The notes below the pieces were generated by a model. That model was not told where the DNA came from and did not search any database. It saw only the letters and a program-made list of their open reading frames with translations. From sequence record SRR20825006_1900: 39,977 bases of DNA. The stretch is one strand, 5' to 3'. Positions within the stretch are counted from its first letter, which is position 1. Every line of letters starts with the position of its first letter. The translations under genes were made by a program, and so were the position numbers. Below are positions 1 to 16,757 of this stretch, in pieces.

Positions 1-2889
1 CACCGAGAAAATTTCCCACGGTTCGCCATCGGTTTCCCAAGTGAGGCTTTCGTTCTGATCGGTGTCTTCCGCATCAGCCGCGATAATGTCGGCCGGCACC
101 CGCTGACCATTGAGGTAAACCTGCCAATCAATATCGAATGCAGGCGCCGTCCCATTGCTGTTGGACAGCCCGATAGGATTCACGCCCTGATAAAGATCAT
201 CCAGGCGGTCGCCGGACCAGCTACCCGTGTTATAGACATTGATGGTGTTGGTCAGATTGTCCAGCGTGGCGCGGATTTCCACCGGACCAAACACCCAGCT
301 TTTGCGAATAATGTCTCCGGCCTGATAGTTATTACGGGCACCACAGGACCAGTCCAGCCAGTAAATCGCATCACGAAAATCGCCGGCACCGCCACTGGCA
401 ATACCACCGCCGGTAGCTTCGGAACCCTGTGGGCAGTTCACCACCGCCCGGGTAGACACCTGGTAGTCTTCCACTTCGCCATCATCCGCACCTTCATAGG
501 GATCGATGGAGGGCGTGGTTGACCAGCGGAAACGGGTGATCACATCATTGGCATCCACTGTGCCCGTTGCCGCACTGGCAACAATGTCGATCTGTCCATC
601 GCCATCCGTGTCCTGAAGATCCTCAGCAATTTGCTCTCCGGCATCATCAAAATCCCCATCCTGGTTCCAGTCCACCCAGGCCTGCAGATAACCACCATCA
701 CCTTCCACACTGACCGAAATCGGGTTGATGCTCGGCAGCACGGAAGGAAAGGTCACCCCGTCATCAAAGGTGTCGGCATCGGCATTGGGATCCGCGTATC
801 CGCCCACATCCTCTGAGACATCGACGCCAAGACGAATGCCATCAACCAGAACATGAGACGGACTCTGGTAACTGGCAGGCGCATCGCCGTAGTCAACCAA
901 CACCTGAGGAGGGGCGTCGATCACACAGACTTTCTGCAGGTTGCTGGAACCGCCGGTGGAACCGGTAAAACCGAAGAACACATTCGGGTCGCCGGCAAAA
1001 TCCAGAGTGGTGAAGTCCCGATTCACAACAGCCACAAGAGAGCCATCAAAGCGGTACTGAAGCTGGTTGGATACCGGATCCCAATCCAGTGACACCGTGT
1101 GCCAGCCTCCATCCTCAATATTGCCCAAATCCACCACGGGACTTAGCAGACTTCCTCCACCGTTGTTGCTGGTATAGTTAACCGGGTCATAAATAACGGT
1201 ATGGTCATTGGCGATATCGCCGTACCCCCCACCGTTGCTATAGGTATCAAATTCCACCGCCACGGCCGGATCCAAACCGCCCACCCCCAAGGCACCACCA
1301 AACACACCGGTCGCACTGCTGCCGGCATCGTCATTCTGGAAGGCAAAGGCAATCCCGTCCGCGCCACTAGCGTCTTTTGTCCCCAAGTAGATGGAAAATT
1401 CCACCGTAAAGGGGGAAAGCAGACTAATGCGATTCTGTGACCAGGCAGAGCCGGACTGATTGCCACTATCCTGGGTCAGGGTAATTTCATTACTAGATGT
1501 ATTTCGCGTGGCACTGCCACTGAGCGACAGGTTCGCACTGATTGCGGCATCACAGGTTTGTGACGTGACATTCAAGCGGTAATCTTCCACCTCACCATTT
1601 CCCGCGTTGTTGCCTATCCCGGGATTTGTTGACTCGGTAAATTTAAAACGCGCATAGGTCACACCGGACGCAGCAGAACCCGGCACATTAATGGTCACCG
1701 GCGTGACCGTAACGAAATTGGAGGAATTATTGCCGCTGGATGTTTCGCCGTTATTGGTGATCTGACGATTGGATACCATCCGCTCGCCGGCATCGCTGAA
1801 ATCCCCATCCCGGTTCCAGTCGAACCAGACGTTCAGGTAACCCGAACCGTATGTGGTCACCGACAGTTCGCTTTGCTGCCCCGGAAAGATGGATTGATCA
1901 TTCAGAGCGCTTCCGCCCAGGGTAACGCCATCTTCATCGTCAAAGTTGACAACCGCGCCCCCCGCCCCATCAAGGTCATCACCGTCCGCGCCCGCACTGG
2001 CTTGCTGCGCACTTTCATGGTCTGGCACCAGACCGGCACCCAAACCCAGAAAACTGCTTACAGCCTGTCGGGCAGCCACATAGGGCGAAGGGGCATCGCC
2101 GTAATCCGTGTTGCCGTCCACCACATCATCGAAATCGTCAACACGCAGAGACAAATAGGAAACACGCCGGGCGGTACTCGACGAGCTTTCTGTTCCGTAC
2201 GCATTATCATTCTGAACCCGAAAAGACGCATTGGATGTTTCCGAAAACACCACACTGGCACGGCACTCGGGCTCGACGGTTGTGGCACCGTCGGTGCAAT
2301 CAGTATCCCGCCCTTTTATGCGCGTGTTATAGCCGCCAGACGCCGATGAAGAAACGGTGGTATCCGTGTTAACGGACACATAGGAACGCGTTTTTTCACC
2401 GGTGTTGAAGTAAAGGTCATCACTGCCTGTGCGAGAGTTGTCCGAGTTTCGATCGAGATCGAACCCGGTAACGATCAGCCGGTCCACAACAACAGGCGTG
2501 GTGGTTCCCTGACGAACCACCGTTAACCGCAAATCCTGGTAGGCAATATTTTCGCCGCTATCCTTGTCTCGCAAACTGGCAAACAACACGCCCTCTTCCA
2601 CTCCCAGACACTGGAAGCTCCCGGCCTGCTCATTGTCTTCCTGCAGCACCTGAACCAGAACATCCAGCGCCTGACCGTCGTAGCTTGCGGATGTACCAAA
2701 CCGGTATGTCGCCTGAGAACAGTCACTGCCGCTAAGAATTGTCCGCGAACCATTCAGCGGCAGACTAATAGCTTCTGCGGCCCCACTCACCAGGCACAAG
2801 CCGATAAAGAGCATGGCAATAAAAACCTGCATTGCCAGCAACCCTGCAACCAGTTTGCCTTTATTTTTTTTCGGTTCGGTTGTCTGCAT
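1..2889 (-). CDS. Large secreted adhesin, 3'-truncated by the window edge (>=963 aa): signal peptide, unknown N-domain, GEVED domain, L-type (legume-like) lectin domain, second GEVED domain, CshA-NR2-like domain
   Basis: Not in the ORF track; translated by hand. ATG at 2889, 4 nt after the upstream TAA, open to position 1. Starts MQTTEPKKNKGKLVAGLLAMQVFIAMLFIGLCLVSGAAEA. Contains DYGDAP...DDEDGV...YLNVWFDWNRDGDF...GEVEDY (GEVEDY at 1579-1596), then ADGIAFAFQ...AVEFDTY...WHTVSLDW...FFGFTGSTGG (lectin), then DYGDAP...YLQAWVDWNQDGDF...GEVEDY (463-480), then IYWLDW...ADAED. Confidence 0.88.
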   Translation of the reverse strand, partial: MQTTEPKKNKGKLVAGLLAMQVFIAMLFIGLCLVSGAAEAISLPLNGSRTILSGSDCSQATYRFGTSASYDGQALDVLVQVLQEDNEQAGSFQCLGVEEGVLFASLRDKDSGENIAYQDLRLTVVRQGTTTPVVVDRLIVTGFDLDRNSDNSRTGSDDLYFNTGEKTRSYVSVNTDTTVSSSASGGYNTRIKGRDTDCTDGATTVEPECRASVVFSETSNASFRVQNDNAYGTESSSSTARRVSYLSLRVDDFDDVVDGNTDYGDAPSPYVAARQAVSSFLGLGAGLVPDHESAQQASAGADGDDLDGAGGAVVNFDDEDGVTLGGSALNDQSIFPGQQSELSVTTYGSGYLNVWFDWNRDGDFSDAGERMVSNRQITNNGETSSGNNSSNFVTVTPVTINVPGSAASGVTYARFKFTESTNPGIGNNAGNGEVEDYRLNVTSQTCDAAISANLSLSGSATRNTSSNEITLTQDSGNQSGSAWSQNRISLLSPFTVEFSIYLGTKDASGADGIAFAFQNDDAGSSATGVFGGALGVGGLDPAVAVEFDTYSNGGGYGDIANDHTVIYDPVNYTSNNGGGSLLSPVVDLGNIEDGGWHTVSLDWDPVSNQLQYRFDGSLVAVVNRDFTTLDFAGDPNVFFGFTGSTGGSSNLQKVCVIDAPPQVLVDYGDAPASYQSPSHVLVDGIRLGVDVSEDVGGYADPNADADTFDDGVTFPSVLPSINPISVSVEGDGGYLQAWVDWNQDGDFDDAGEQIAEDLQDTDGDGQIDIVASAATGTVDANDVITRFRWSTTPSIDPYEGADDGEVEDYQVSTRAVVNCPQGSEATGGGIASGGAGDFRDAIYWLDWSCGARNNYQAGDIIRKSWVFGPVEIRATLDNLTNTINVYNTGSWSGDRLDDLYQGVNPIGLSNSNGTAPAFDIDWQVYLNGQRVPADIIAADAEDTDQNESLTWETDGEPWEIFSV

Positions 2890-2893
2890 CGTT

Positions 2894-5773
2894 TTACTCC
2901 ACCCGTAACCCGAAAATAAGAACGGCGGTTTCACCCGCTTTCAATTCGCCCACATTGACCGACACATCACCGGTACCCGCTTCGGCAGGTGCAACCACAT
3001 CGGCGCTGCAATCCCCCGAGGGAAGCTGGCAACGGGTGGCAGCAGACAGCATGGTTGTGAACGGCTGGGTGCGATCATTAATGGTCACTTCATACATGCT
3101 CTGCGCCCCGGTATTGGCTGCCGTCAGGCGATAAATCACGCACTGCTCGCCAGGTGTTGCCGTAAATCGGGTATAGACAAAACAGCCATCCGCAGTACAA
3201 CTGCCCGGGCCATCCGGCACGCCATCACAGTCGGCATCCAGTGCCTGCTCTTTGGTCACGGCCACATCGGTATTGCTGGTCGTGGTGGAATCCGTCGCCG
3301 TGTCGGTCACCGTCTGCCCGGCACCTTGTGCCGTAACAGTGAGCGTCTTGAGGTTGGTAATGCCGTACGCTGCCGTGGCCGGGGCAAAAACCCGGGCGAA
3401 CACGGACAGGCTCTCACCCACGGCAAGCACACCATCTGCCCCGGCAGTCTGCAGAGGAGTGCCATCGACAATCAGGGTATCCGCCGTATCCCATTGGCCA
3501 TTGCCGTTGCTGTCCTCGTAGAGGGTAATCGACCAGCCATTGTCACTGGCGCTGTCAGGCGTGCCGCTGAGCAGCACATTGGTCAAATCCACATTACCGG
3601 TGTTGGTGAGCTGATGGCTATAAAGCACGCTGCTGCCCGGCGCCACTTGCCCGGTCTGGTCCGGCTGCAGGGAAAGTGCCGGTCCCGCCACTACGACCAC
3701 CTGATCCAGCTTGATGTCGCCGGCATTACTGGTCGGCGACAAGGCTCGCAGGTACAGCGGCAAGGTATCGCCTCCGCTAGCCGATTCCGGCACCGTGACC
3801 TGGGCACACACCAGCCGCTGGCTACCTGCCGGCACCAGCCCGGTATTGGTAATGGCAACGCCATTGGCGCTGCAATCTGCCGATCCACCATCACGGTAGA
3901 AGGTCACGCTCCACCCCGCAGGCAATTGCCCCGGATTGAAATTGCTGTTGCTGGCGTGCAGGTCGTAGCTGTCCTGCCGCGGCCCGGTGTTATTCACATA
4001 CAACACAAAGGTGCCATGATTACCCGGGGCGACTGACAGGCTGCGCACCGGCGTCGCTTCCGGTCCTGGTCCTTCACCCGGAGCACTGCCGTTAACCGGC
4101 TGATCGTTGGTCAGGTCCACACTGTTTGTCGCAATACTGATGAGTGTGTCGGTCACCGCATTACGGACCTGGGGGTCCGTAACGGAACTGGCGACCTTGG
4201 TGACCTGAAAGGGGCCACCCAATGCATTGGGCGGCAGAATCACCTGTAGAACAACGCGCACGCCGCACACACCATTGCCGGCATCGCGGACAAAGCGGGA
4301 TGGGCACTGGCCACCTTGATCGACCAGCGGGATCGGCCCGGTATCCGGTACCCCGTTGCCATCGGTATCCACCAACGGGGTTGCACCATCGGCCTTGAGC
4401 AACTGGAAGACAGTGCCCTGGGGGAAGGGCTCGCTTAACGCTGCCCCGGAACGGTCGTTAACGGCGTCGAGAGTGATATCGAAACGGTCTTCGCCATCGC
4501 CGGTATTCCAGATCACGTTATTGAACAGCACGGTGCCACCCTGACCGGCACTGGCAATCTCGACACGGTTACCGGTATCGCTCACGTCATCGCTACCGGT
4601 AATGCTGTCATTCTCACTGTTGTTGGCCACCACCGCTGGCGCCAGCGCCCGATCGATAACAAGGTAGCTCACCGCATTGGTACTGAACGGAGACGGCGTA
4701 CCGAAATCCGTATCGCCGGCTTCGTTGGAGTAGCGGAAACGGCCAGTATTGCGAACCCGGTCGCCGGCACTCAGGCCCGCATCCAGGGTAACCTCGAACG
4801 TGAGAGTACCCACACCGCCCGGCGGCAATTGCGCCACGACCGCTTGAACCCGGTCCTGACAATCCGGTTCGGCCGCATCCGTATCGTAGGCACAATAGCG
4901 GATCAGGTTAGGGGCATTGCCCTGATCACCATCATCGCCATCGTCGGTGAGTGGGGTGTTGCCGGTAAAGGTCCAGCGAGCGGAATCCGGCACATAGGTC
5001 ATGCCTGCTGACACCCCATCCACGGAGACGGTGGGCAGCACATCTTCAATGACGATATCCGTGGCCGCCTGGTCCGATGGGTTACGGTAATCCAGAGTGA
5101 CGGTGATTGGCCCGTCCGGGGAACGGCCCTCCCGCTGGCTCAATGACTTGACCACTTCAATCACCGGGCCATCGATGACATCCGCTTCATCCGTATTGAT
5201 GGCCAGCAGGGTGTTATCCGCATCACTGCGCGCACGAACCTGCAATGACGGCTGCTGGCCCGCCACCGTTCCCGCCGACAATTCCGCTTCTACCACCAGC
5301 GAGAAGGTTTCGCCGGAAATCATGTCCGGGGTCAGATTATCCCAGCAGCCATCTGCGTCAGACTGGGTAAACAAGGCGCCGCCCGCATCCGGTTGGCCAT
5401 CGCCGTTACCGTCGGCGTAAACGGCCCAGGCATCAATGTCGCTATCCACATTGGTAATACACAACTGATACTGGTCGTGACCATTACCGGTATTGGTCAA
5501 TACATGGGAGAAGTACACCAGCCCACCTGGCAGCGCCGGCTTGCCCTGATCACTGACCAGTTCAATGCCCGGTACGTTCTGCACCAGTGTCTGCACCAGG
5601 TTGGAGGTCACCCGTTGTGCTTCCGCCTGCTCCGTACAGCCATCATCCAGACAGGCCCGGTAACTCGCCGACGCCTGGTTCTTGATCACGGTGCCTGCCG
5701 CAGGCGTGGCCGCCTGAACACCGCCCCCCAGCATCAGCAGCACCATCAGCCCTGTACGTTGCAGTTTATTCAC
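2894..5773 (-). CDS. Secreted multi-Ig/DUF11-domain protein (959 aa), putative minor fibre subunit
   Basis: Signal peptide (..GGGVQA). Repeated PG-x-V-x-F/Y-x-H-x-L-x-NTGN Ig-like units, one complete DUF11-type domain (VVKS..IEDVLP..RVRNTG..STN) and DxNGxG Ca-binding loops. Collinear paralog of 12825..15791. Confidence 0.8.
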   Translation of the reverse strand: MNKLQRTGLMVLLMLGGGVQAATPAAGTVIKNQASASYRACLDDGCTEQAEAQRVTSNLVQTLVQNVPGIELVSDQGKPALPGGLVYFSHVLTNTGNGHDQYQLCITNVDSDIDAWAVYADGNGDGQPDAGGALFTQSDADGCWDNLTPDMISGETFSLVVEAELSAGTVAGQQPSLQVRARSDADNTLLAINTDEADVIDGPVIEVVKSLSQREGRSPDGPITVTLDYRNPSDQAATDIVIEDVLPTVSVDGVSAGMTYVPDSARWTFTGNTPLTDDGDDGDQGNAPNLIRYCAYDTDAAEPDCQDRVQAVVAQLPPGGVGTLTFEVTLDAGLSAGDRVRNTGRFRYSNEAGDTDFGTPSPFSTNAVSYLVIDRALAPAVVANNSENDSITGSDDVSDTGNRVEIASAGQGGTVLFNNVIWNTGDGEDRFDITLDAVNDRSGAALSEPFPQGTVFQLLKADGATPLVDTDGNGVPDTGPIPLVDQGGQCPSRFVRDAGNGVCGVRVVLQVILPPNALGGPFQVTKVASSVTDPQVRNAVTDTLISIATNSVDLTNDQPVNGSAPGEGPGPEATPVRSLSVAPGNHGTFVLYVNNTGPRQDSYDLHASNSNFNPGQLPAGWSVTFYRDGGSADCSANGVAITNTGLVPAGSQRLVCAQVTVPESASGGDTLPLYLRALSPTSNAGDIKLDQVVVVAGPALSLQPDQTGQVAPGSSVLYSHQLTNTGNVDLTNVLLSGTPDSASDNGWSITLYEDSNGNGQWDTADTLIVDGTPLQTAGADGVLAVGESLSVFARVFAPATAAYGITNLKTLTVTAQGAGQTVTDTATDSTTTSNTDVAVTKEQALDADCDGVPDGPGSCTADGCFVYTRFTATPGEQCVIYRLTAANTGAQSMYEVTINDRTQPFTTMLSAATRCQLPSGDCSADVVAPAEAGTGDVSVNVGELKAGETAVLIFGLRVE

Positions 5774-5785
5774 TCCAACTCCCCT

Positions 5786-6406
5786 TTACTTGACTGGCGC
5801 CGGCGGCACAAATTCATCGCCGCCACTGCCGGCAAAGTCAGCCCGCAATACCAGCGGGCGGCTCTGCGCATCCAGCGGCATCAACTCAACACGGCGGTTG
5901 ATGACCCGTTGTTCGTTACTGGCATTTGACAAAATAGGTAGTTCTTCACCCAATGCGACGCGTTTGATGCGGCCATTACTGATACCCCCATCTCGCAGGT
6001 ACTGCACCACCTGGTCCAGGCGGCGAGCCGCCAGTTTCTGGTTATAACTTGCTGCGCCTTTTTCATCGGTAAACGCCTGCACACTCACCTGCAGGGTCGG
6101 GTACTGTTTCAGCACCGCCAAATTACTGTCCAGCCGGCGCACCTCAGCCTCGGCCATCTGGCTCTGATCAAAACCAAAATACACCGCCGGTTCCCAAACC
6201 TGGGTACGACTTTCACCTGCCATCAGGCCTGCTCCGCCGCCAGCAGCAATCCCGGTGACCGTCACCAGGCCGTTGCTCGTTACCCTGGCTTCCACCGGAC
6301 ACAGCTCATCATACTGTGCATACAGAGACTCGGTGCTGGCACATCCGGCCATTACTGCCATGCTCGCCAGGATCAGTAACGCCAGCCGCGCTTTCATCAT
6401 GTTCAT
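5786..6406 (-). CDS. OmpA-family (OmpA_C peptidoglycan-binding) lipoprotein
   Basis: Lipobox MAGC; VYFGFDQS, FTDEKG..YNQKLAARR, NRRVEL motifs; ATGA overlap with the upstream gene. Confidence 0.9.
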   Translation of the reverse strand: MNMMKARLALLILASMAVMAGCASTESLYAQYDELCPVEARVTSNGLVTVTGIAAGGGAGLMAGESRTQVWEPAVYFGFDQSQMAEAEVRRLDSNLAVLKQYPTLQVSVQAFTDEKGAASYNQKLAARRLDQVVQYLRDGGISNGRIKRVALGEELPILSNASNEQRVINRRVELMPLDAQSRPLVLRADFAGSGGDEFVPPAPVK

Positions 6407-9400
6407 CGCGCATCTCCCAGATAACTGCGCTGCCCGGCGGCTTTACTGCCCAGCCAGCTCAGGTCATCTTCATCGAATTTGTATTCCAGTCCAACAAACA
6501 CGCCTTCTGCGTTATAGCCTTCCGGGTCCAGGTCATCGTCACGGAAACCGGTGAAGTTATAGCCCACGCCCATGCGCAGATTACGGCGCACCAGTGCATT
6601 GACGGTAAAGCCGTAGCTGTAACGGCGCTCTTTAACGCCTTCCGTGGTAATCGCACCACCATGCAAATCCAGATCAAAACGGCGGGTGATATCCCAGATA
6701 ATCCGGCCATCCGCCACATAGGCATCCGATTCCACATCCAGATTGCCCAGCTCGGTTTGTTGCCATTTGGCGCCCAGGCGACCAGAGAAAATCCAGTCGT
6801 CATGGGCCTGATAGTTATGGTGAGTGGAGAACAAATGCACAGTGCGATCACTGCCGCCACTACCGCCCCACTCTTCTTTCCATTTGTACATGAACAACAT
6901 GTGGTGACGGTTATCCCGACGCGGACGGCGGGCCATCCCCAGGGTGACAATGTTGTCGCCTTCCTTGGCTTCCGTATCGAAATACTGCAGGCGCAGGTCA
7001 TCACGCACCACCGCAGACCAGTCGGTATTCACTCGCCAGATATTGGCCGCACTCAGACCGTAGTACTCACGATCATCGCCAAAGCGGGTTTCCACCCGGC
7101 CCAGGGTACGACGGTTTTCATTGCGCTTGTCTTCTGCCCCCACGGACAGGGCCGTGGCGTCCTGATTGGTTTGTCCGTCCAGTGTCTGAATCCACTCCAT
7201 GGACGGCGACACGGTGAGCCCCGGTTCAATTTCAATATCCGACTTCACACCATTGGCGGCTGCTACATCACGGCCATCCACGGCACCGCGCAAACGGTAC
7301 TCGGAATACACATCCGTATTGCGGGTGACCGCGGAACGCACACCGGTGGTGAACTGCTGCGTTTCCACATCATCATCCAGCGTATTGATACCATTCAGAC
7401 TGTTGATGATTTCGTAACGGCTGTAGAGGCTGGTTTTCTCGGTGAGCTGCATGTCCGCGTCGGCCGCGATACGGCGGCGACTGGTATCGTTGAAGGCCTG
7501 CTCATATTCCGCGCCGATCTGGAAGGGTTTGCCCAACAGGTTAAAGCCCCGATCAGCGCCGAGAATATAGGTGCCGAAATCTTCACTGCCCTGGGCATCT
7601 TTCTGCTCGATACCGCGCACCCCGCCGCGCAAGGCGGTGGCGCCGATACGTTTTTCCCCGATCACGCCCAGGCTGTTCTGCTCTTCGGAGCCGTCCAGCT
7701 GCTTGGACCGGATGCCTTCCACTTCCACGGAGAAATCCCGGGCCAGCATCTGTTCGTGGCCCAAACGCATTTCTTCACGAGCGGCACTGATACCCGCCGA
7801 CGGGTTATCAAACCCCGCCTCCGCGCGCGCCCAGCGCAATTCGGTACGCGAGCCATCCACCCACAAACGCTCACCATTAATGCTGTAGGCGCGCCCTTCC
7901 GGGTCATTGTTTTCATGGGCCATGGAGCCTGAAGACACATTGATGCGGGTATTCTCGTCCAGCTTGTATTGAGCGGAAACGCTGGTCAGGTCGAAGCCTT
8001 CCGTTTCATGGTCATCCTGGGTGCGGCTAACGCCCAGCTGTAGCTGATCGGTCAGGTCGTAGTTCAGGCGCGCGCCGAGTACATTGTATTCTTCGGCATC
8101 GCCTTCCACGTTATAGCTCACGCGAACAAACACCGGATTCAGGCTGTCATCCACCGTGGGCACCACATCGTGGAAGCGAATATCACCGGTAAAATAGTTC
8201 ACCGAATAATCCACATAACGGGTCAGCGGCGTGGTTTCGATGACCAGCCCCGGGTTGTTGCGGTCACGGACAATAATTTCCACGGTTTCACTGTCGCGGG
8301 CCGGGTCGTTGCTCAAGGTAAACAGCAGCGCCGTACCATTACCCGGCAGCTCTTCTGTCACCTGCTCCATATCCGGGCGGGCAGCGAACACCTGGAAGCG
8401 GGCACGGCCGTTGTCGTAGACCCCATTCAACCCGGTCAGGGTACGCTGGGTCCGGCCCAGGTCGTAGAAATCGTTCTGCGGATCGGTGAGGTAGTCCCCC
8501 CACATGATGCTGCTGCGGTCTTTTTCCAGTTTCGCATACAGTTTGCTGCGACTGCGGGCATCGTAGCCGCGCACAGAGGCATCACCGGGGATCGGATAGT
8601 AATCTGCCGGGTTCAAATCACGGCGCACTTCGTCTTCGGTATCCAGATCCTTGTCGGTGTCGTAGGCCAGCGTCAGGTGGGCATCGCCGCGGACCTGACC
8701 TTTCATAAATACGGCAGCCCGACCATCCACACCGTCTTCAAATTCGTCGGCCACATCCGTGGGCGCATTTCCGTTGTCGCGCAACCCACCGGCGCGGCTT
8801 TGCACCTGTAAAAAACCGGTTGCCAGCAACGGACGAAGAGGGGCGATCTGCTCAATCTGGATGCTGTCGCTGAAACGGTCCAGAGTGGCGCGCAGACGCA
8901 CCGGCCCGGTGTATTCCGTGCTGCGCAGATGAGCCAGCGCCACCCCGTCCACCAGTTTGATTTGATGTCCCGGTGTGCCGCTCTGCAAATCCTCTTCCAG
9001 CCACTGGCCGCGATCGGTTTCCAGTGTCACAAAGTGGCTGCCCAATGCCGGGTTGCCTTTGGCATCATTGAGACGAACACGCACACCCAGGGTTGAGCGC
9101 CCACCGTCTGCGGGCAGCGTATCGGATTCGGTTTCCAGGGTGATAGACTGCGGTGCAGCCGGGCGCACCACGGTTTTTTCTGCCATCACCCGCTCGTTAC
9201 CGAACATGTCCCGGGTGCTGACTACCAGCGTGTTTTCCCCTTCACCCAGGGTAACGCCGTACCAGGTAACAACCTGAGCGCGCTCGCGCTTGTTGACCAC
9301 CTGTTCGCCCAGCTGCGCCTTGGCTACCGTCTTGCCATTCACGCTCAGTACCGGATCCACCCCGGCACGTACCACTACCTGGAAACGACCATCACGGCTG

Positions 9401-12400
9401 ACGCCCCCGCGAGGCCACAACCAGGCACCCTGTTCCGCCTGCTCACGAGTAATGCTGGCCGCCGCTTCCTTGGTGTTCTGCATGATGGCTTCCGGGTTGG
9501 CCGGCAGTACCGCGGCCGTATCCGTTTTCTCGCCCTGGGACTGGGAGACTTTTTCCCAGGCAGCGGTGAGTCCGTCATCCCCGGTCTGGGTATAGACACC
9601 GCTACCCAAATCACCACTGCCGTCGGCCTGACGCAAAACCGGATTGATGGTTTGCTGACGCAGGGGATCAAAGCGAGCGGCTTCATCCAGCATCCAGTCA
9701 CCGTTCATGGAGGCATTGCGGGCTTTGAGTTGTTCCGCCAGTGCTTTCGCCTCATCGCCGGCGGGACAAACGGCGGCAAAGTCCGCACGGTGATATTCAC
9801 CGGAGCGCAAATCCACAAACCGGCTTTCCGGGTCTGCCGCGTGGCGGTTATCGATAGGCTTGAGTTTGACACCAGCCGGCAAGGTCAGCGGGTCCACCTT
9901 GATGGTATGCAAACCCGGGTTCAGGCCATAAACGCTGTACTGGCCGTTCTCGTCGGTAATCACCCAGGTACCGTCCTGCAGGTACAGCTTCACGCCACCA
10001 ATGGGCCACTCGCCATCGTTCTGCAGGTTATTACAGTCCGCATCCACATAGACTTTACCGAACAGCATGGCCTTGTCTGACAGCACGCCTTCGTTGCGGA
10101 TCTCCACTTCGGCTTCGTCCTGGTTGGAACGGTAGGTAAAGCCGGAAGCCGTATTGGCCTGGGCCGTGGCCCGGTTGATGCCGTCACTGTCCACCGCGGC
10201 GGCCGACAACCGCAAACCGTAATGCAGTGTCACCGTTTCACCCGCCTGCAGTGGCAGTGCCACTACAGAGCCATTACTGCGCTCGCGCTCCAGGCGGAAG
10301 GTCAGCTGTGGACCAGGACGGCCCGCCGGATCTGGCATTTCGATGCGCTGCCCGCCCACGTCCAGCCAGGCGCTGTCATTGATGTAGCGAAAACCATAGG
10401 GCAACTGATCGATAATCCTGCCGGCGTAAAGCGCATCGGTGTGGTTGTTGGTCAGGTTGATGCTGTAGGCCAACACATCACCCACCGCAGCGCTGTCCTT
10501 CTCCACATTCTTGTCCAGCACCAGAATCCCGGCAGCGGTATTGGCGCTCGGGTCCAACGGAATATTCACAAACACATTCGAGGTACCCAACAGGAACGCC
10601 CCGTTGTTACTGCCCGCCACCCGCGCAGCTTTACGCCCCACCGGCGCCTGATAACCTTCCAGGCCGTAGGAGCTGTCATTCACATCCGAATAGAAGCTGC
10701 CCGCTGCAGCAGGAGACACCACTGACGGGAAGGTATAGCCCGCCGGTGGCAATACATCCAGGTAATAGCAGTGGCCCGGGGTAGCAAAGGGGTACTGGTA
10801 ATCGCCCAGCACAGAGGTGTTATCCACGTTGGCGGTATTGGTGTTTTCACCATCCAGGCTCTCACCGGTGAAAGGGTCTGTGCCCACTTCATAGTCGCTT
10901 TGCGCCAGATCCGCACAGCTGCCCGCGCCACTGGCCGATAAGGTTTGCCGGGACTGGTACAGAATCACCTGCGCACCACCCACCGGGTTGCCGTTGCTGG
11001 AGTCAAAGACGGTTCCGGCCGGGTCCACCGCGGCCACATCGGACACCACCTCATAACGCTCAACATTGCCGGTGGGACCATAAATCGGCATCTGAAAACG
11101 GGCGGTCAACGTATCGCGGGCCTCACTGCGCAACGCACAGGCCTCATCCAGCACCTGACTTGTGGTGGTATTACTATTGAATTCCTGCGCCTGGGAGGTA
11201 CTCGCGGTGGAGGGGCACTGGCGGCCGTAACCGTTTTCATCATTGCTAAGCACAAACGGGCGAATACTGCGGAATACACCGGAATCCGGTGTCGTCTCAC
11301 TCATGACAACGCGCAAGGTGTCGCCGGTCAGGGCCGATTCCACGGTCACAATAATGAGGCGCTCACCGGAGGGTCCTCGCTCCAGGAAATCCCGTTGGGT
11401 CGGGGACAGGTTCAGCTGTGAGGCGTTCAAGCGCAGGTAGACGCCATCGGTGAGTACCTGATTGTTTTCAGCGGGCAACAGCGCATACATATCCGCTAGC
11501 TGGAAGTCGCTGTCCTCGCTGTGCCGCGGCGCCTGCCCGGAACCGGACACCTGTGGCGTGGGGCGCTCGAATACCAGCGTCGGACGAACCGAACCCGCCA
11601 GGGTGTTGCACACCGTATTACTGAAAAAGTCGTCCGCGCCATCGCCATCGGTATCAACAACCGCCTGGTTGTAAATCCGTGTATTGCTGGTCAACCCGGT
11701 GCCGACCTGAACACCGAAGGTAAAGCCGCCAGACTCATTGGATTCCATGGCCGACGCGGGAACCAAAACGCCAAAGCGGTCCACTGGCGTGGACGGTGAC
11801 CACAGATCAAAGCGGATCCATTCATCATCCGCATCGCCGGAACGGTGCACCACCGCGACAGATTGAATTGGCGAGATACCGGTAGCGCTGCCCGGGCGTA
11901 ACTGCACGTTCGCCGGCAAGGCATCTTCCAGCATAACGCCCTGCTCCACCTGACCACTGATCAGGAAGCGCCTTTCTGCGGGGGCGCTGCTGCCGGTATT
12001 GGTATAGCTGATGCTGTAGTCCAGCGATTGCCCTTCCTGGGCAGGGTTATCACAACTCTGGCTGCTCGACTTGGTCAGATTCAGGAAGGCGCCAGAAGCC
12101 ACCGTGACACTGTCTTGCCGTGAGTCGGACACATCAGCATCCGTTTGCGACTCGGCCAGTACCGACACTCTCAACACATCATTCTGACCTTGCCCGGACG
12201 TCACCGTGCCTGCCACCACGAGGGAAAGTGACGCGCCGGCAGGCAAGCTCACCGGCGCCGTAATTTCCGGTTCACCGGCATCGACCACACCGTTGCCGTT
12301 CACATCTTCATACAGACGCAAATTCAACAGGTCACCATCATCGCCGGCACTGTTCACCGCCGTCAGGCTGTAGTCATCGTCCACATTGCCGGTATTGGTC

Positions 12401-12663
12401 AGAACATGGGGCAGGTTAACGCGCTGGCCGGCGGCCACTGTCAACGCATTGTTGTTACCCAGCAGCACATCACGGTATGGCGCCACAACAAGTTGGGACA
12501 CATTGGAACTCTGCGTGACCACCTGCCCGGTAAGCGGGTTCAGGTAACGGACCTGGGCCTGGTTACGCAGCACCGTACCGGCCGGGGTGGCAGCCGCAAT
12601 GGCGCCGCTGGCAATCGCCAGCAGCGTCATTACGCTGATTGTCCAAACCCCGATCCGATTCAA
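6403..12663 (-). CDS. Giant outer-membrane protein: N-terminal Ig/DUF11 domains, SdrD-B/Cna-B-like and invasin-like Ig domains, ~800 aa C-terminal beta-barrel
   Basis: ORF 6403..12729. Likely start is TTG at 12663 (AGGA 9 nt upstream), which gives a clean signal peptide MNRIGVWTISVMTLLAIASGAIAA. Two complete DUF11-type domains; GKVYVDADCNN..ITDENGQYS; amphipathic strands from ~8844 ending GVFVGLEYKF. Confidence 0.8.
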   Translation of the reverse strand: MNRIGVWTISVMTLLAIASGAIAAATPAGTVLRNQAQVRYLNPLTGQVVTQSSNVSQLVVAPYRDVLLGNNNALTVAAGQRVNLPHVLTNTGNVDDDYSLTAVNSAGDDGDLLNLRLYEDVNGNGVVDAGEPEITAPVSLPAGASLSLVVAGTVTSGQGQNDVLRVSVLAESQTDADVSDSRQDSVTVASGAFLNLTKSSSQSCDNPAQEGQSLDYSISYTNTGSSAPAERRFLISGQVEQGVMLEDALPANVQLRPGSATGISPIQSVAVVHRSGDADDEWIRFDLWSPSTPVDRFGVLVPASAMESNESGGFTFGVQVGTGLTSNTRIYNQAVVDTDGDGADDFFSNTVCNTLAGSVRPTLVFERPTPQVSGSGQAPRHSEDSDFQLADMYALLPAENNQVLTDGVYLRLNASQLNLSPTQRDFLERGPSGERLIIVTVESALTGDTLRVVMSETTPDSGVFRSIRPFVLSNDENGYGRQCPSTASTSQAQEFNSNTTTSQVLDEACALRSEARDTLTARFQMPIYGPTGNVERYEVVSDVAAVDPAGTVFDSSNGNPVGGAQVILYQSRQTLSASGAGSCADLAQSDYEVGTDPFTGESLDGENTNTANVDNTSVLGDYQYPFATPGHCYYLDVLPPAGYTFPSVVSPAAAGSFYSDVNDSSYGLEGYQAPVGRKAARVAGSNNGAFLLGTSNVFVNIPLDPSANTAAGILVLDKNVEKDSAAVGDVLAYSINLTNNHTDALYAGRIIDQLPYGFRYINDSAWLDVGGQRIEMPDPAGRPGPQLTFRLERERSNGSVVALPLQAGETVTLHYGLRLSAAAVDSDGINRATAQANTASGFTYRSNQDEAEVEIRNEGVLSDKAMLFGKVYVDADCNNLQNDGEWPIGGVKLYLQDGTWVITDENGQYSVYGLNPGLHTIKVDPLTLPAGVKLKPIDNRHAADPESRFVDLRSGEYHRADFAAVCPAGDEAKALAEQLKARNASMNGDWMLDEAARFDPLRQQTINPVLRQADGSGDLGSGVYTQTGDDGLTAAWEKVSQSQGEKTDTAAVLPANPEAIMQNTKEAAASITREQAEQGAWLWPRGGVSRDGRFQVVVRAGVDPVLSVNGKTVAKAQLGEQVVNKRERAQVVTWYGVTLGEGENTLVVSTRDMFGNERVMAEKTVVRPAAPQSITLETESDTLPADGGRSTLGVRVRLNDAKGNPALGSHFVTLETDRGQWLEEDLQSGTPGHQIKLVDGVALAHLRSTEYTGPVRLRATLDRFSDSIQIEQIAPLRPLLATGFLQVQSRAGGLRDNGNAPTDVADEFEDGVDGRAAVFMKGQVRGDAHLTLAYDTDKDLDTEDEVRRDLNPADYYPIPGDASVRGYDARSRSKLYAKLEKDRSSIMWGDYLTDPQNDFYDLGRTQRTLTGLNGVYDNGRARFQVFAARPDMEQVTEELPGNGTALLFTLSNDPARDSETVEIIVRDRNNPGLVIETTPLTRYVDYSVNYFTGDIRFHDVVPTVDDSLNPVFVRVSYNVEGDAEEYNVLGARLNYDLTDQLQLGVSRTQDDHETEGFDLTSVSAQYKLDENTRINVSSGSMAHENNDPEGRAYSINGERLWVDGSRTELRWARAEAGFDNPSAGISAAREEMRLGHEQMLARDFSVEVEGIRSKQLDGSEEQNSLGVIGEKRIGATALRGGVRGIEQKDAQGSEDFGTYILGADRGFNLLGKPFQIGAEYEQAFNDTSRRRIAADADMQLTEKTSLYSRYEIINSLNGINTLDDDVETQQFTTGVRSAVTRNTDVYSEYRLRGAVDGRDVAAANGVKSDIEIEPGLTVSPSMEWIQTLDGQTNQDATALSVGAEDKRNENRRTLGRVETRFGDDREYYGLSAANIWRVNTDWSAVVRDDLRLQYFDTEAKEGDNIVTLGMARRPRRDNRHHMLFMYKWKEEWGGSGGSDRTVHLFSTHHNYQAHDDWIFSGRLGAKWQQTELGNLDVESDAYVADGRIIWDITRRFDLDLHGGAITTEGVKERRYSYGFTVNALVRRNLRMGVGYNFTGFRDDDLDPEGYNAEGVFVGLEYKFDEDDLSWLGSKAAGQRSYLGDAR

Positions 12664-12712
12664 TTCACGATTTCCTGTCGTTCCCACGCGGTGCTTGAGC
12701 ACCTTTTTTTGG

Positions 12713-12820
12713 GCCGCCCCAGCGGCCATGTTTTTAGAGCTTTCTCAGACGTTGCGCACAGCGCCTGAGAAAGCTCTCCCCCTTCCCCGCACAGGGGAAG
12801 AGGAAGAGCCCGGGAGGGGC
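12713..12820 (-). other. Cluster of intergenic stem-loops downstream of the putative major subunit gene
   Basis: Perfect 13-bp inverted repeat AGAGCTTTCTCAG/CTGAGAAAGCTCT (12736-12777); CTTCCCC/GGGGAAG (12782-12800); GGCCGC/GCGGCC near 12713-12727. No U-tract on the coding strand. Confidence 0.65.
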
Positions 12821-12824
12821 TTGC

Positions 12825-15791
12825 TTAGTTCACTTGCACACAGAACTGTGCATTGGCGTTATCACCCGCTGGCAAATCACCCACGAGCCACTCCACAACA
12901 GGCGCGGTGCCGGAGTTGGCCACCGAGTTGTTGTCCGAGGCACGCACAGAGTCTTTGGCGGCCAGGAAGGAGGTGTACGGGGTGGTTTCATCAGTGATGG
13001 TCACGTTCTTCGCCGTAGCCGCACCTTCATTGGTTGCCGTCAGGCTCCAGATCACACACTGACCCGGCTCCACTTCCGTGGTCTGGGTAGCAGCGAACGG
13101 GCTATCGGGTGTCCAGGTCGGGGAGGCATCGTTACAGCTACAATCCGCATCCACGCCGGCCGTCTTGTTCAGACGTACCTGGCCGAGAATGACTTCGGTC
13201 AGGTCGGTGGCGGTGGCAGACGCATCGGCACCCGCAGTGTTGTCTTCATTTATGGCAGACAGGGTCAGGGTGTCCTGGGTGCCCTGCGGCGCATTGGCCG
13301 GCGCGAACACCGTCACCTGCAGTTCCACTTTCTCACCCGCTTCCAGCGTCAGCTCCGGCGCGTTATCGCCGTCTGCATCCGCCACACCGATTTGTACCGG
13401 GTTACCCGCCTGATCACGCACCCACAGCTGGCCAGCCGTGGCCAGAGCGGCGATCTGGCTCAGCTCACGGTAAGCATCGGGAGTACCGTCGTTGTTGGTG
13501 TCCACATACAACTGGGTGGTGTTGGTCCAGTCCGGCGCATTGGAGTTTGCAGCACTCAGCTCAACGGTTTCGGTGGAATTGCCGTCGTTGGAAAGCACGT
13601 GCGGGTAGTCCACATTACCGCCTGGCTGTACCTGGTTGGCACCGTCAGGAGTGATGCTGATATCACGGTTGGCAACAACGTCTACCGCATCCAATTTGCT
13701 ATCGGTAATACTGTTATCCGATGAGGAGGTCACGGTGAAGGTCACCGGATAGTCACCGTCGCTGTCGTTGGTATTAACCGCGTCACCGCCGGTGTAGTCC
13801 GCTTCGGCCTGGGCCACGTTGGAAGACACTTTCACTTCCGCGGTGTAGTGGTAAACCGCGCTGGCAGGCAGGTTCGGGGTGGCCGTTACCACGGTGCCGG
13901 CATCGACGGTGTTATCCAGGGTGCCATTGCCGTCGTTGTCGATACCCACTTCCTTGAATACCACCGTCCAGCCGGAAGGCAGTGTGGAACCCAGCGTATA
14001 GGACTGCGGGTTACCGGATTCATTGGCGACAAACAGGCTGAAGCTGGTGGTTGCACCGGCCGCAGCTGAATTGGTGGTGGTGGGTGTGCCGGTGTTGGCA
14101 TCCGCATCCACTGCACTATCACCCAGACCGGTTGCCGTGGCGCTGTTGGCAATATCCACAGCCGCCGCATTAATGGTCGCGAGCACACCCTGAGTGTCAT
14201 CACTTTGGTTATTGTCGCCAGCAGAGGTGGCAGTGAGCGTATAGGCATAGGGGCCTGCACCACTGGCCGACGCCGGCAGATCCGCTTTCACGGTAATATT
14301 CAGCGCATTCGCTGCACCTGGCGCCAGGGAACCGGTATCCGGGTTGCCATCGCCATTGGTATCGGTGATTTGCACTGTGCCAGCCGCATTCCAGAAGCTG
14401 TAAGTGGTGCCCGCGGGGAAAGTGCTGCCCGCCGTATCCACGCTCAGTTCAAACACATCGTCGCCGTTACCGTTGTTGGTGATGGTGTGCTTGAAGTCCA
14501 CCACGGCACCGCTGGCGGCGCTGGCGACGTTGAACACATCATCATCGGTGGTATCGGGGGCAATTTCGGTGTCGTCCGCATCCACGGCATAGGTCTGACC
14601 GATAACGGTGGTTACCGTGTTGGAAGTCACCGGGTTATCCGGGGTGTTATCACCATCCAGGTCGCCCTGGGCGGCAAAGGTGTTCTTGATCTCAGTACCT
14701 GCAGCAGCAGCCGGATCAAAGCTGACGGTATACACCACAGACACGGTGGTGTTCACACCCAGGCTGGCATCGGTCAGCAAAATACCGGGGATACCGGTTT
14801 CACCGCTGGTGCCATCGCCATCCAGGTCTACACCGGCGGGCTCATCAATAGAGGCCAGAGCTGCCGGCGTGTACATGGTGGTCGCATCCGCCGGGATATT
14901 CTGGTCCGTACCGGTATTGTCTTCGTAGGTGTCACCATTGGATGCCAACAGACCATTCACCGTGGTGATATCCACAAAGGTAGCGTTGGCCGGCACCGCA
15001 TCGAAGATGTCTACCGCGGTCGCCGCACGGCCACCGTTGTTTTTCACCGTCAGGGTGTAGGTAATGGTGTTGGCTGTCAGATCAACGGACGCCGCCTTGG
15101 TGGTTACCAGCACGGCATCAGTGGTCACTGTCACCTGGTCGCTGTTGGTATCGTTACCGTCTGCGCCGTTAACACCGTCAGAGTCATAGGTGCCAGCATC
15201 GCCGTTGGTGCCGATATCCTGTACCAGGCCACCGTCATTGGCGTCGAAGCTGCCATCGCCCCGGGTCGAACGCACCAGCAAGGTGCCATCGATGGTGGCG
15301 CCCGCTGCGGTTCCGGAGGGAACCGGCACGGCCAGGATCAGCTCGACCTGGTCACCGGCATCAACGATCACTGACGTGGCGGCGCTTTCACCGGCATCGG
15401 GCTGACCATTGCCGTTGGCGTCGATAAACACCTGATAGCTACCCGCTGCGCCGGCACCATTCAGCCCGTCCAGGGTGAAGGTATCGGTGGCATTACCGGT
15501 GTTTTTCAGAGTGTGGCTGAAGTAAACGGTTTCACCCGGCGCACCGGATTTGTTGCCGTCATTTTCCAGCGTACCCGCATAGACTTCTGCAACGGTCACT
15601 ACCGCTTCATTGGACTGTGCGGAGTAGCTGTTGCCGTTGGCATCTTCATAGGTAACGGTTGCCTTGTTCTTGATGTCCGTCCCTGCGTCAGTCAGCGCCC
15701 ACGCTTGCCCTGCGGCAAACAATAGACCCCCAGACACAAGGGATGCGGCCATTTTCGAAGACAACACGCCCTTATTGAAGGCATGTTTCAT
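12825..15791 (-). CDS. Secreted multi-Ig/DUF11-domain protein (988 aa), putative major fibre subunit
   Basis: Signal peptide (..AGQAWA), AAGGA RBS, A/T/D/N/G-rich composition, four Ig-like units, one complete DUF11-type domain (K232, D264, N370), many DxD/NGDG loops. Confidence 0.82.
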   Translation of the reverse strand: MKHAFNKGVLSSKMAASLVSGGLLFAAGQAWALTDAGTDIKNKATVTYEDANGNSYSAQSNEAVVTVAEVYAGTLENDGNKSGAPGETVYFSHTLKNTGNATDTFTLDGLNGAGAAGSYQVFIDANGNGQPDAGESAATSVIVDAGDQVELILAVPVPSGTAAGATIDGTLLVRSTRGDGSFDANDGGLVQDIGTNGDAGTYDSDGVNGADGNDTNSDQVTVTTDAVLVTTKAASVDLTANTITYTLTVKNNGGRAATAVDIFDAVPANATFVDITTVNGLLASNGDTYEDNTGTDQNIPADATTMYTPAALASIDEPAGVDLDGDGTSGETGIPGILLTDASLGVNTTVSVVYTVSFDPAAAAGTEIKNTFAAQGDLDGDNTPDNPVTSNTVTTVIGQTYAVDADDTEIAPDTTDDDVFNVASAASGAVVDFKHTITNNGNGDDVFELSVDTAGSTFPAGTTYSFWNAAGTVQITDTNGDGNPDTGSLAPGAANALNITVKADLPASASGAGPYAYTLTATSAGDNNQSDDTQGVLATINAAAVDIANSATATGLGDSAVDADANTGTPTTTNSAAAGATTSFSLFVANESGNPQSYTLGSTLPSGWTVVFKEVGIDNDGNGTLDNTVDAGTVVTATPNLPASAVYHYTAEVKVSSNVAQAEADYTGGDAVNTNDSDGDYPVTFTVTSSSDNSITDSKLDAVDVVANRDISITPDGANQVQPGGNVDYPHVLSNDGNSTETVELSAANSNAPDWTNTTQLYVDTNNDGTPDAYRELSQIAALATAGQLWVRDQAGNPVQIGVADADGDNAPELTLEAGEKVELQVTVFAPANAPQGTQDTLTLSAINEDNTAGADASATATDLTEVILGQVRLNKTAGVDADCSCNDASPTWTPDSPFAATQTTEVEPGQCVIWSLTATNEGAATAKNVTITDETTPYTSFLAAKDSVRASDNNSVANSGTAPVVEWLVGDLPAGDNANAQFCVQVN

Positions 15792-15837
15792 GGCTTCATT
15801 CCTTTAATGGATTGTGTTTTGGATTACCCTCGGTTTC

Positions 15838-15951
15838 GAAAGCCTTGCGAGAGCGGCCCCTCGTTATTCACAAGCGGTCCGCCCCTCCCCATGCGGCCGA
15901 TCGCAACGATCAAGCCGCTCGCACAAGACTTCCCGGGATCTTTCGATCCCG
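15838..15951 (-). other. Structured intergenic leader RNA
   Basis: CGGGATC-GAAA-GATCCCG hairpin (15934-15951) and a 20-bp helix, 15914-15933 with 15838-15857, with G-U pairs and one mismatch. Confidence 0.55.
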
Positions 15952-15969
15952 CGTCTGCTTCTCCCGGAG

Positions 15970-16440
15970 CTACTGCACCCGTACCCGGTAGCGGTATTCC
16001 TGCACCTGGTCAGGCTGCAGGCTGCCTTTCGGCTGCCAACGCACCTGGGTGTAGTCGCTGGGAGAAACCTCGACGTTCTTGGACTGGCCATTTTCGCCAG
16101 TAACTGTTTTGGTGACCGGCTCAGCCTGGAAGCTGTCGCCGTTATCAATGCTGACGGTGAAATCGGCGCTCACCTGGGTGGCAGCACTGTCTTTTAGATA
16201 AACGGTATTCGCCGGAACCGGTCCGGTAATAACCAGACCGGAAAGCGGCTGGTCACCGTTATTGGTATAAGTCAGCCGGTATTCGACAATATCCCCGGGA
16301 CTGGCCTGCTCGGCTTCCTCCACCACTTCCTTGCCGTCTTGACTGGTCACCAGATAAGAATCCATCTGGCTGGATAACGGAGCATCCGCCCAGACAGCAG
16401 CGGACATCAAGAGCATCAAAGCCGAAAAGAACAGTTTCAT
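15970..16440 (-). CDS. Small secreted stand-alone DUF11-like protein (putative chaperone or cap)
   Basis: Signal peptide MKLFFSALMLLMSAAVWA (ORF track starts at 16449); ASPGDIVEYRLTYTNNG..LVITGPVPANTVY..LQPDQVQEYRYRVRVQ. Confidence 0.85.
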   Translation of the reverse strand: MKLFFSALMLLMSAAVWADAPLSSQMDSYLVTSQDGKEVVEEAEQASPGDIVEYRLTYTNNGDQPLSGLVITGPVPANTVYLKDSAATQVSADFTVSIDNGDSFQAEPVTKTVTGENGQSKNVEVSPSDYTQVRWQPKGSLQPDQVQEYRYRVRVQ

Positions 16441-16530
16441 GAGCAACATTCCCGGTATAAATCAGGGTCCACCCTGACCTTCACTCAATACATCGCACCG
16501 TGCGACATACCCCTATATGAAAATATTTTT

Positions 16531-16589
16531 TGTGACGAGAGTCCCATAAAAGAACCCTGTTACTGTAATTCTTTGTGACAGCATGCGCA
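16531..16589. promoter_or_regulatory. Two CRP/Vfr-like boxes upstream of the fibre operon
   Basis: TGTGA-cgagag-TCCCA (16531-16546, 9/10 to TGTGA-N6-TCACA) and TGTGA-cagcat-GCGCA (16574-16589, 8/10), both with AT-rich flanks. Confidence 0.5.
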
Positions 16590-16729: not shown

Positions 16730-16757
16730 AAAAAACCCGCCAGTGGCGGGTTTTTTT
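16730..16757 (-). terminator. Intrinsic (bidirectional-type) terminator after hflC
   Basis: AAAAAACCCGCC-AGT-GGCGGGTTTTTTT, ~20 nt after the hflC stop. Confidence 0.9.

Follow-up and report, generated by a model that had tools for sequence, protein, structure and literature searches.

What could be the function of a small secreted protein that resembles the larger part of an isopeptide domain and lacks the residues of the reactive pair? This question is raised by a 39,977-nucleotide stretch of sequence record SRR20825006_1900 (the window in the following), whose host is Alcanivorax, a marine bacterium, judging by the names of close homologues of the gene in question. This gene, here called g1, heads a row of minus-strand genes, g1 to g6, that is predicted to encode a covalently linked fibre. 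The in silico evidence presented below supports the view that g1 corresponds to the acceptor half of a split CLIPPER (DUF11) isopeptide domain, chemically dead and encoded as a protein of its own. As to its role, we tentatively favour a transient periplasmic capping chaperone, acting as an anti-polymerisation and anti-termination factor, a reading which appears to us plausible rather than probable.

The g1 product probably comprises 156 residues with Met4 (nucleotide 16440) as its start, because orthologues and the Atlas record begin at this position. The same position was the end coordinate in an earlier sequence-only reading of this DNA, in which a donor-strand chaperone or cap had been proposed; residue numbers given here follow the 159-residue frame, as they did there. 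The signal peptide has no lipobox Cys and mature g1 is free of Cys. The domain is recognised by PF01345 (DUF11; 27.5 bits, cut-off 24.6) and by TIGR01451 (37.9 bits, cut-off 24). An AlphaFold2 model based on 17 orthologues is confident, with a mean predicted local distance difference test (pLDDT) score of 88.1 and a predicted template modelling (pTM) score of 0.77, and displays an all-beta fold of ten strands; pLDDT values are below 50 for residues 1-3 and 10-20. A Foldseek search of the PDB with this model returned no match at E ≤ 0.001, and we name no structural relative.

By its hidden Markov model matches g1 belongs to the DUF11/CLIPPER superfamily, yet it lacks both the complete fold and the triad of a functional CLIPPER. 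The complete CnaA-like immunoglobulin (Ig) fold includes two final, Asn-bearing strands which are missing in g1, and instead of the Lys-Asp-Asn triad g1 has Met29, Gly76 and no Asn strand. The Pfam local match, in which residues 46-126 correspond to profile positions 10-94 of 114, would not by itself demonstrate the truncation; this is indicated by the alignments. The C termini of g1 (YRYRVRVQ), g2 (...FCVQVN), g5 (...FGLRVE) and the g6 orthologue of genome G009 (...YDVRVSP) end in one alignment column, and three internal complete domains continue past it into an i-x-N-x hairpin, which bears out the earlier claim of a truncated fold sharing its end point with the subunits.

The sequence-only reading had also pointed to Gly in place of the catalytic Asp (ITG76PVP); the motif is present, and the codon of residue 76 reads GGA. 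In a MAFFT alignment of g1 with 20 subunit C termini from the window and 15 other genomes, this column holds Asp in 19 of the 20, the twentieth row being gapped there and not occupied by another residue. Likewise, the first strand was correctly described as free of Lys: LSSQMDSYLV contains none, and its Met29 contacts the donor Asn in the complex model described below. A crude regular expression for the corresponding phi-x-K in the strand A region is matched by all subunit acceptors of the same loci (19/19). Finally, a regular expression for the donor motif matches at residue 40 of g2, 54 of g3 and 30 of g5 and finds nothing in g1, in agreement with the supposed absence of an N-terminal donor.

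The dead triad appears to be a family-wide trait of the small g1 homologues. Gly76 is invariant in 17/17 close orthologues. For a broader comparison 62 members were aligned, comprising g1, 4 homologues and 57 profile-search matches representing clusters at 50% identity; P0127 and P0128, which have two domains in tandem, were left out. The Gly76 column of these 62 small proteins contains 43 Gly, 6 Val, 6 Ala, 3 Asn, 2 Asp, 1 Ser and 1 Thr, and the Met29 column 33 Met, 24 Leu, 3 Ile, 1 Val and one gap. Asp is accordingly present in 2/62 and Lys in 0/62, as expected if orthologues lack the pair consistently; since the family sequences are kin, we give counts and no probability. Lys does not form the majority in any column of residues 22-47, its highest share being 21/62 at position 40. 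The C-terminal end falls on the same residue as in g1 in 50 members, and the other 12 run 1-5 residues further. More distant genomic g1-like proteins mostly read ITNPIP at the Gly76 motif.

A profile search of 1.84 billion cluster representatives yielded 6263 matches at E ≤ 0.001. The best 150 of these consist of 60 proteins of 126-320 residues, matched over nearly the whole profile, and 90 giants of 1019-7895 residues, multiply matched and only in the generic DUF11 core; among these 150, whole-profile matches occur in the small proteins only. No fused longer form of g1 was found among 670 longer candidates at E ≤ 1e-10, which the tool rates as weak evidence. On the sequences surveyed, g1 appears always to be a free-standing small soluble protein. 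The two proteins left out of the alignment (P0127, 319 residues; P0128, 320 residues) consist of two tandem g1-like units, both of which begin with an N-terminal strand pair of their own and are truncated at the end, and could hold two donors simultaneously.

The missing part of the domain is encountered at the other end of the fibre proteins. After the signal peptide, g2, g3 and g5 carry the motif A-G-T-x-[IL]-x-N-x-A-x-v-x-Y ... S-N ... V, which is the closing part of a complete internal DUF11 domain (GTEIKNTFAAQGD...SNTVTTV inside g2 compared to GTDIKNKATVTYED...SNEAVVTV at the start of g2). The C-terminal DUF11 domains of g2, g5 and the G009 g6 orthologue stop just before this hairpin and keep the first-strand Lys as well as the Asp in i-x-D-x-x-P. 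Because the donors match the closing hairpin of the domain and the acceptors stop just before it, we infer a split domain, in which the N-terminal hairpin of one protein would complete the C-terminal domain of the next and could be locked by a Lys-Asn bond. No published definition of a split-CLIPPER fibre subunit was found, and its features are defined here from g2 and g5; g1 shares with them the truncated acceptor and lacks the donor and the Lys/Asp pair. On this reading, g6 would be the tip, g2 and g5 the shaft and g3 the base of the fibre. The g6 gene runs off the window, and its full orthologue in G009 encodes 1603 residues with a C-terminal reactive acceptor (LLLQK, VTVNDSTP); as g6 has no donor and this orthologue ends in a reactive acceptor, g6 is presumed to be a covalent tip.

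The way in which g1 might hold a donor is illustrated by a complex model of g1 residues 22-159 and the mature g2 N terminus (43 residues), calculated in three runs with three controls, the supplied alignments being unused. The interaction prediction score from aligned errors (ipSAE) was 0.86 in each of the 3 runs and 0.02 in the best of the 3 controls; the mark applied to this score is reached by 51/78 solved complexes and by 2/108 mismatched pairs. The donor partner had pLDDT values of at least 84 and the contacts were 100% alike across runs. In the model, the hairpin lies in the open groove between g1 strand A and strand C. The strand C region pairs with the first donor strand (g1 residues 72-75 with donor residues 14-18), and residues 27-31, as strand A, pair with the second (donor residues 30-33). 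Met29 contacts donor Asn12, which is the invariant Asn42 of g2, as well as Ala14, Ser30 and Asn31, and Gly76 contacts donor residues 14-15; because of these contacts we equate Met29 with the Lys position and Gly76 with the Asp position. Binding of all three donor peptides had been suggested for modelling in the sequence-only reading; the g2 donor was seated as expected, and the result holds for this one of the three. Non-covalent capture of the donor by g1 is thereby supported in silico.

We also considered whether the N-terminal hairpin of g1 itself (strands 25-37 and 40-45) might be a degenerate cis donor, g1 being a circular permutant. This idea was rejected because residues 27-31 pair with the second strand of the incoming donor and Met29 contacts the donor Asn, because the donor motif is absent in g1, and because the 22 residues from Met29 to Pro51 lie within the 19-33 residues counted by hand between the Lys and the PG motif of the acceptors.

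Matches to g1 are found in 34/70 genomes of the family at E ≤ 0.001, some of these being only partial matches in giant DUF11 proteins. With the 62-member profile, a member is detected at E ≤ 1e-15 in 22/400 evenly sampled Gammaproteobacteria genomes (18/321 genera); the unpublished genome G366, which is among these, was left out of further analysis. The set of loci studied comprises 17 loci from 15 genomes. In 15/17 the g1-like gene is followed on its strand by a g3-like gene, recognised by a blastp match to the barrel part, and in the same 15 a gene for a subunit with donor and acceptor is located between the g1-like and the g3-like gene. Distant operons are minimal and consist of a g1-like gene, one gene for a subunit of 355-476 residues and a g3-like gene coding for about 1900-2250 residues.

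About 14 kb upstream of 7 such distant operons were read. An extra subunit with donor and acceptor is encoded there in G308, G189 and G225 (two open reading frames in G225). In G190 there is a 340-residue subunit that ends in an acceptor and has Ser at the Asn position of its donor-like start, followed further upstream by an 802-residue donor-less protein with a C-terminal reactive acceptor. Nothing related was found in this region in G239, G357 and G196, tips elsewhere in these genomes not having been searched for. One contig of G367 contains two complete operons back to back (L041 and L055), each headed by a divergent g1-like gene (163 and 158 residues). As each of these operons carries its own g1-like gene, they suggest that each fibre system needs a cognate g1 copy.

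These findings can be combined in the following model, in which the covalent fibre chemistry, the periplasmic location and the hand-over are inferred. The proteins g2, g5 and g3 begin with the last two, Asn-bearing strands of the domain, and g2, g5 and g6 end with the rest of it, bearing Lys and Asp; head-to-tail insertion would rebuild the domain and lock it covalently. As g1 has Met29 for Lys and Gly76 for Asp, it would accept a donor hairpin only non-covalently. The hairpin would be the first part of a subunit to leave the Sec channel, and it is N-terminal on the g3 anchor, too. As a chaperone, g1 would cap it in the periplasm and shield it from free acceptors as well as from premature termination by g3. 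At the g3 barrel it would then pass the hairpin to a reactive acceptor, and the bond formed there would make the transfer irreversible. That such a capture may be reversible is made plausible by SpyDock, a dead partner which is reported to bind reactive SpyTag reversibly (PMC7844731).

We prefer the chaperone for four reasons. Its uniform non-reactivity fits release, whereas a permanent joint would gain from a covalent bond. Furthermore, g1 is retained beside a covalent donor-less tip, as with g6 and its G009 orthologue and with the 802-residue protein in G190, so that it is not replaced by a tip. Of each subunit, the donor would reach the periplasm first. Finally, g1 stays free-standing.

Several observations weigh against this role, for which the evidence is wholly in silico. 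The favourable score of the complex may reflect fold completion, i.e. a likeness to intact DUF11 or CnaA-type domains, and the tool comes with a warning that two halves of the same fold will pass; moreover, a single donor, that of g2, was modelled and without a reactive acceptor as comparison. Once inserted, a two-strand hairpin probably has a very high kinetic stability, and we see no mechanism for its release. A g1-like protein is the sole acceptor-only protein nearby in 3/7 distant operons (G239, G357 and G196). Two of the 17 loci (L045, a second copy in G399, and L054 in G374) are orphans, in which about 10 kb of downstream sequence contain no g3-like gene. Nor is g1 marked as conserved machinery, as it diverges about as fast as stalk and barrel: in L039/L040 it is 45% identical compared to 36-41% for stalk and barrel and 77% for the donor. 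Conservation in the modelled interface does not significantly exceed that of the remaining residues (2.43 versus 2.23 bits, Mann-Whitney p = 0.11), and 25/137 circular shifts reach the observed interface conservation. The most conserved residues (S100, D102, G104, P111, G121, Y133, W138, Y154 and R155) lie outside it.

The expected stability of the inserted hairpin and the minimal operons are what one would predict if g1 were instead a permanent distal cap or initiator, which sits on the outermost free donor hairpin, is exported along with it and forms a minimal tip without adhesin. As there is no load at the fibre end, a covalent bond would not be needed there. Strand-complemented Ig folds of chaperone-usher pili are very stable without covalent bonds. 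Like the tip g6, g1 is acceptor-only, the operons of G239, G357 and G196 hold only a g1-like gene, one subunit gene and a g3-like gene in the region read, and the docking model fits a cap as well as a chaperone. On the other hand, g1 persists beside covalent donor-less tips (g6 and the 802-residue protein in G190), and a covalent bond would be free of cost in a permanent joint, yet Lys is absent in 62/62 and Asp in 60/62 family members. Evolutionary rates do not separate the two roles when g1, stalk, barrel and hflC are compared; in L007, g1 is 72% and hflC 85% identical. On balance we consider the cap, the main rival, unlikely, though it deserves to be taken seriously.

The conserved positions outside the interface could have a structural role, form a docking site or be the real business end of the protein. 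E41, E56 and N63 join this second set of conserved residues. Window positions 16090-16152 (g1 residues 100-120) encode a family-specific loop, VSIDxGxxF/W...EPV, whose VSIDxGxxF/W part we take to resemble the Asp-box/BNR motif. This distribution of conserved residues would be explained if g1 did not bind donors at all and were a small periplasmic or secreted Ig-like protein using its conserved surface (the Asp-box-like VSIDxG loop, EPV, YTxxRW and YRV) for another ligand or partner, e.g. the g3 barrel, peptidoglycan, a glycan or Ca2+. Neither the open groove nor the loss of the reactive pair would then be of functional significance. Weak profile matches point in the same direction, namely those of the g1 family profile to sialidase BNR repeats (E 0.045-0.6) and a borderline one to the LptD chain 8h1r_A in the PDB (E 0.023 by sequence/profile search and 0.011 by profile, over residues 63-126 of that chain), none of which was used. 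In addition, many DUF11 domains lack the triad anyway, according to the CLIPPER survey (PMC12617251). Such a function of g1 is nevertheless improbable in our view: the exact truncation point is common to the reactive acceptors and kept across the g1 family, g1 is tightly linked to donor-bearing genes, and the confident docking sets the donor Asn against Met29. A chaperone, too, would need a second surface for docking to the translocon, so that the preferred role is compatible with the conservation pattern.

A further alternative concerns the dosage of g1. The spacer between g1 and g2 is strongly structured (z = -3.97), and neither a T-run nor a terminator was found in it. It may be an attenuator, a stabiliser or a processing element, and by this prediction it could uncouple the dosage of g1 from that of g2 and set the g1:g2 ratio. 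This would suit a regulator of length or termination, in which g1 reversibly competes for donors, chiefly that of the pore-tethered g3, and thus delays anchoring and sets fibre length. The g3 protein has a donor and no acceptor, so its insertion must end growth, and g1 is linked to g3-like genes in 15/17 loci. Such a regulator is one particular form of reversible capping, in which nothing is delivered; the present data fit it and the chaperone alike, and among the explanations weighed here we regard it as the least probable. Concerning transcription, the terminator of the upstream gene hflC precedes g1, so the g1 operon needs a promoter of its own within 16450-16730. Contigs of 4 RNA-library runs from 4 studies span g1 and g2 and end at 16546-16582, about 100-130 nucleotides upstream of the start codon. 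The hint at a transcript start in that interval is weak, as DNA carry-over is possible and contigs give no expression level.

The features of the locus are listed in Table 1.

Table 1. Features of the putative fibre locus, with positions in the window; residue numbers of g1 refer to the 159-residue frame.
Feature	Position	Strand	Description
g1 open reading frame	15970..16449	minus	159 residues; signal peptide and single truncated, non-reactive DUF11/CLIPPER acceptor domain (predicted)
g1 signal peptide	16387..16449	minus	residues 1-21; cleavage after AVWA (AVWA|DAP-type), by eye
g1 strand A	16339..16377	minus	residues 25-37; Met29 (codon 16363-16365) in the position of the isopeptide Lys
g1 strand C region	16213..16248	minus	PLSGLVITGPVP; residues 68-79; Gly76 (codon 16222-16224) at the place of the catalytic Asp
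g1 last strand	15973..16005	minus	QEYRYRVRVQ; stop codon 15970-15972 directly after; Asn hairpin of complete DUF11 absent
g1-g2 spacer	15792..15969	minus	178 nucleotides, G+C-rich; RNA fold -77.4 kcal/mol, z = -3.97 versus shuffles
g2	12825..15791	minus	988-residue fibre subunit: signal peptide, donor hairpin, DUF11 repeats, C-terminal reactive acceptor
g2 donor hairpin	15576..15695	minus	residues 33-72, Asn42
g2 reactive acceptor	12828..13208	minus	VRLNK, ITDETTP
g3	6403..12729	minus	2108 residues: donor hairpin, Ig-like stalk (DUF11, SdrD_B), C-terminal all-beta region; no acceptor
g3 donor segment	12418..12597	minus	Asn56
g3 C-terminal all-beta region	6406..8985	minus	about 860 residues, modelled as very large outer-membrane-type barrel
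g4	5786..6406	minus	206 residues; OmpA-family (peptidoglycan-binding type) lipoprotein
g5	2894..5773	minus	959-residue second subunit: donor hairpin, C-terminal reactive acceptor
g5 donor segment	5534..5713	minus	Asn32
g5 reactive acceptor	2897..3292	minus	VAVTK, TINDRTQP
g6	1..2934 (runs off window)	minus	lectin/GEVED/CshA_NR2 adhesin without donor
hflC terminator-like hairpin	16730..16756	minus	belongs to upstream gene hflC

The last 860 residues of g3, modelled with 16 homologues, form an all-beta structure of about 47 strands (pLDDT 76.2, pTM 0.68), which we call a very large barrel on the basis of this prediction, its family being unassigned. Foldseek retrieved only large outer-membrane barrels (LptD, SlpA, MtrB, TonB-dependent receptors, FimD and SprA), with E values of 1e-7 to 1e-5 but low template modelling (TM) scores of 0.12-0.27, and a sequence search of the PDB with the barrel gave no match. 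As the likeness is generic and the TM scores are low, the barrel was not assigned to the usher, LptD or SprA family; for SprA, TIGR04189 gave 15.6 bits compared to a cut-off of 200. The g3 C terminus may belong to a new family of translocons or anchors, joined here to a stalk with a donor at its tip. For g4, an assignment as PdsO of the proteobacterial dedicated sortase system was not obtained, the TIGR03789 match (57.4 bits) being below the cut-off of 152.2.

Conservation in the fibre proteins is by a wide margin highest in the donor hairpin. Relatives in which g1 is 71-72% and the g2 stalk 69-79% identical have 95-98% identity in the hairpin, and those in which g1 shows 39-45% and everything else 35-48% still have 74-78%. 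G7, N12, A14, S30 and V37 are invariant in 16 donors. One locus (L005, G011) is a mosaic: its g1 is 93% identical to that of the window, the adjacent g2 stalk 47% and the donor 79%, which suggests recombination within the operon.

Some further observations concern single loci. The acceptor-ending subunit upstream of the g1-like gene of G190 (L056 147-1169) starts with ...NTVVSSTATVDY; manual comparison shows Ser replacing the invariant donor Asn, and this subunit may have a naturally non-reactive donor. The orphan locus of G374 (L054) reads IIIDDPIP, by eye with Asp at the Gly76 position, and adjoins motA/motB-like genes. In G308 (L059) the fibre operon is preceded by a gene for a 788-residue protein which by eye, from its C-terminal sequence, we take to be a sigma-54-type regulator. 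Further upstream lie genes resembling those for type II secretion or type IV pili (an ATPase, a platform protein and pseudopilin-like N termini, also by eye). These neighbours hint at a possible exit route for subunits in some lineages.

If the chaperone reading is true, a Gram-negative fibre pathway joins donor-strand logic and spontaneous covalent locking, with g1 as a control element that must bind a reactive tag without reacting; carried by 22/400 of the sampled Gammaproteobacteria genomes, the family is widespread enough to matter. In its broadest form, this reading makes g1 the founder of a class of natural dead-catcher, acceptor-type (inverse) chaperones of a diderm, sortase-independent split-CLIPPER isopeptide fibre, with delivery to a giant self-anchoring barrel and with acceptor exchange followed by covalent locking driving assembly without ATP. 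Taken as a whole this is possible, and we hold it to be rather doubtful.

The proposed logic is that of PapD and FimC: until the subunit is assembled at a barrel in the outer membrane, its interactive element is capped through fold complementation by a periplasmic protein dedicated to this task. PapD has two Ig domains (PF00345/PF02753) and donates a strand to the groove of the subunit, whereas g1 has one truncated DUF11 domain and would accept a hairpin, and the fibre here is expected to be covalent. The description of g1 as the inverse of PapD, put forward in the sequence-only reading, is therefore fair for the logic and does not extend to a family relationship: no PapD-type domain (PF00345/PF02753) was among the Pfam matches of g1 at E ≤ 0.01. 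To our knowledge, the known chaperones of donor-strand systems donate strands, and g1 would be the first known to accept them. ElrE, a recently described chaperone of a donor-strand system, is reported to donate strands as well. A cap would find its model in the pilin domains of FimH and PapG, which have a groove and no donor strand, are acceptor-only and end the fibre distally. This pattern fits g6 and might apply to g1 in a stripped-down form; unlike FimH and PapG, g1 has neither an adhesin domain nor reactive residues and coexists with a real tip, g6.

Within its own superfamily g1 shares the core PGD-x-v-x-Y...N-x-G...v-x-i-x-[D]-x-x-P with CLIPPER/DUF11 domains and differs from them as a single stand-alone domain that stops short of the Asn hairpin and carries Met in place of the Lys and Gly in place of the Asp. 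In the CLIPPER structure 9IFR the triad consists of Lys715 in the first strand, the catalytic Asp748 and Asn806 in the penultimate strand (PMC12617251). This survey describes some DUF11 domains without the triad and intramolecular bonds in complete domains only; the words 'split' and 'truncated' do not appear in it, and its five uses of 'intermolecular' refer to other systems. The literature searched gave no account of DUF11 domains that are split, of an intermolecular bond formed by CLIPPER domains or of the small g1 family. Exchange and lock has its closest precedents, going by the abstracts, in the TasA-family protein BsaA of C. perfringens, whose N-terminal donor enters the following subunit and is then fixed there by an isopeptide bond that forms spontaneously (10.1101/2024.11.04.621531), and in a Sulfolobus thread in which donor insertion is followed by an isopeptide lock (PMC9715654). 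Both differ from the g1 system in their folds and come from a monoderm bacterium and an archaeon; a dead acceptor-only accessory protein is not described in these abstracts.

The closest counterpart of the proposed g1 is an engineered one. SpyDock is a non-reactive SpyCatcher mutant for the reversible capture of reactive SpyTag and, as described in PMC7844731, the large non-reactive half of a split isopeptide domain, which binds the small half non-covalently and releases it still reactive. SpyDock was derived from CnaB2 of a Gram-positive adhesin and binds a one-strand tag, whereas g1 is natural, CnaA-like (DUF11) and encoded inside a fibre operon, and is predicted to bind a two-strand hairpin. 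If the chaperone reading holds, g1 would be the natural counterpart of the SpyDock/SpyTag pair, and its two-strand tag could be useful for reversible-then-covalent coupling.

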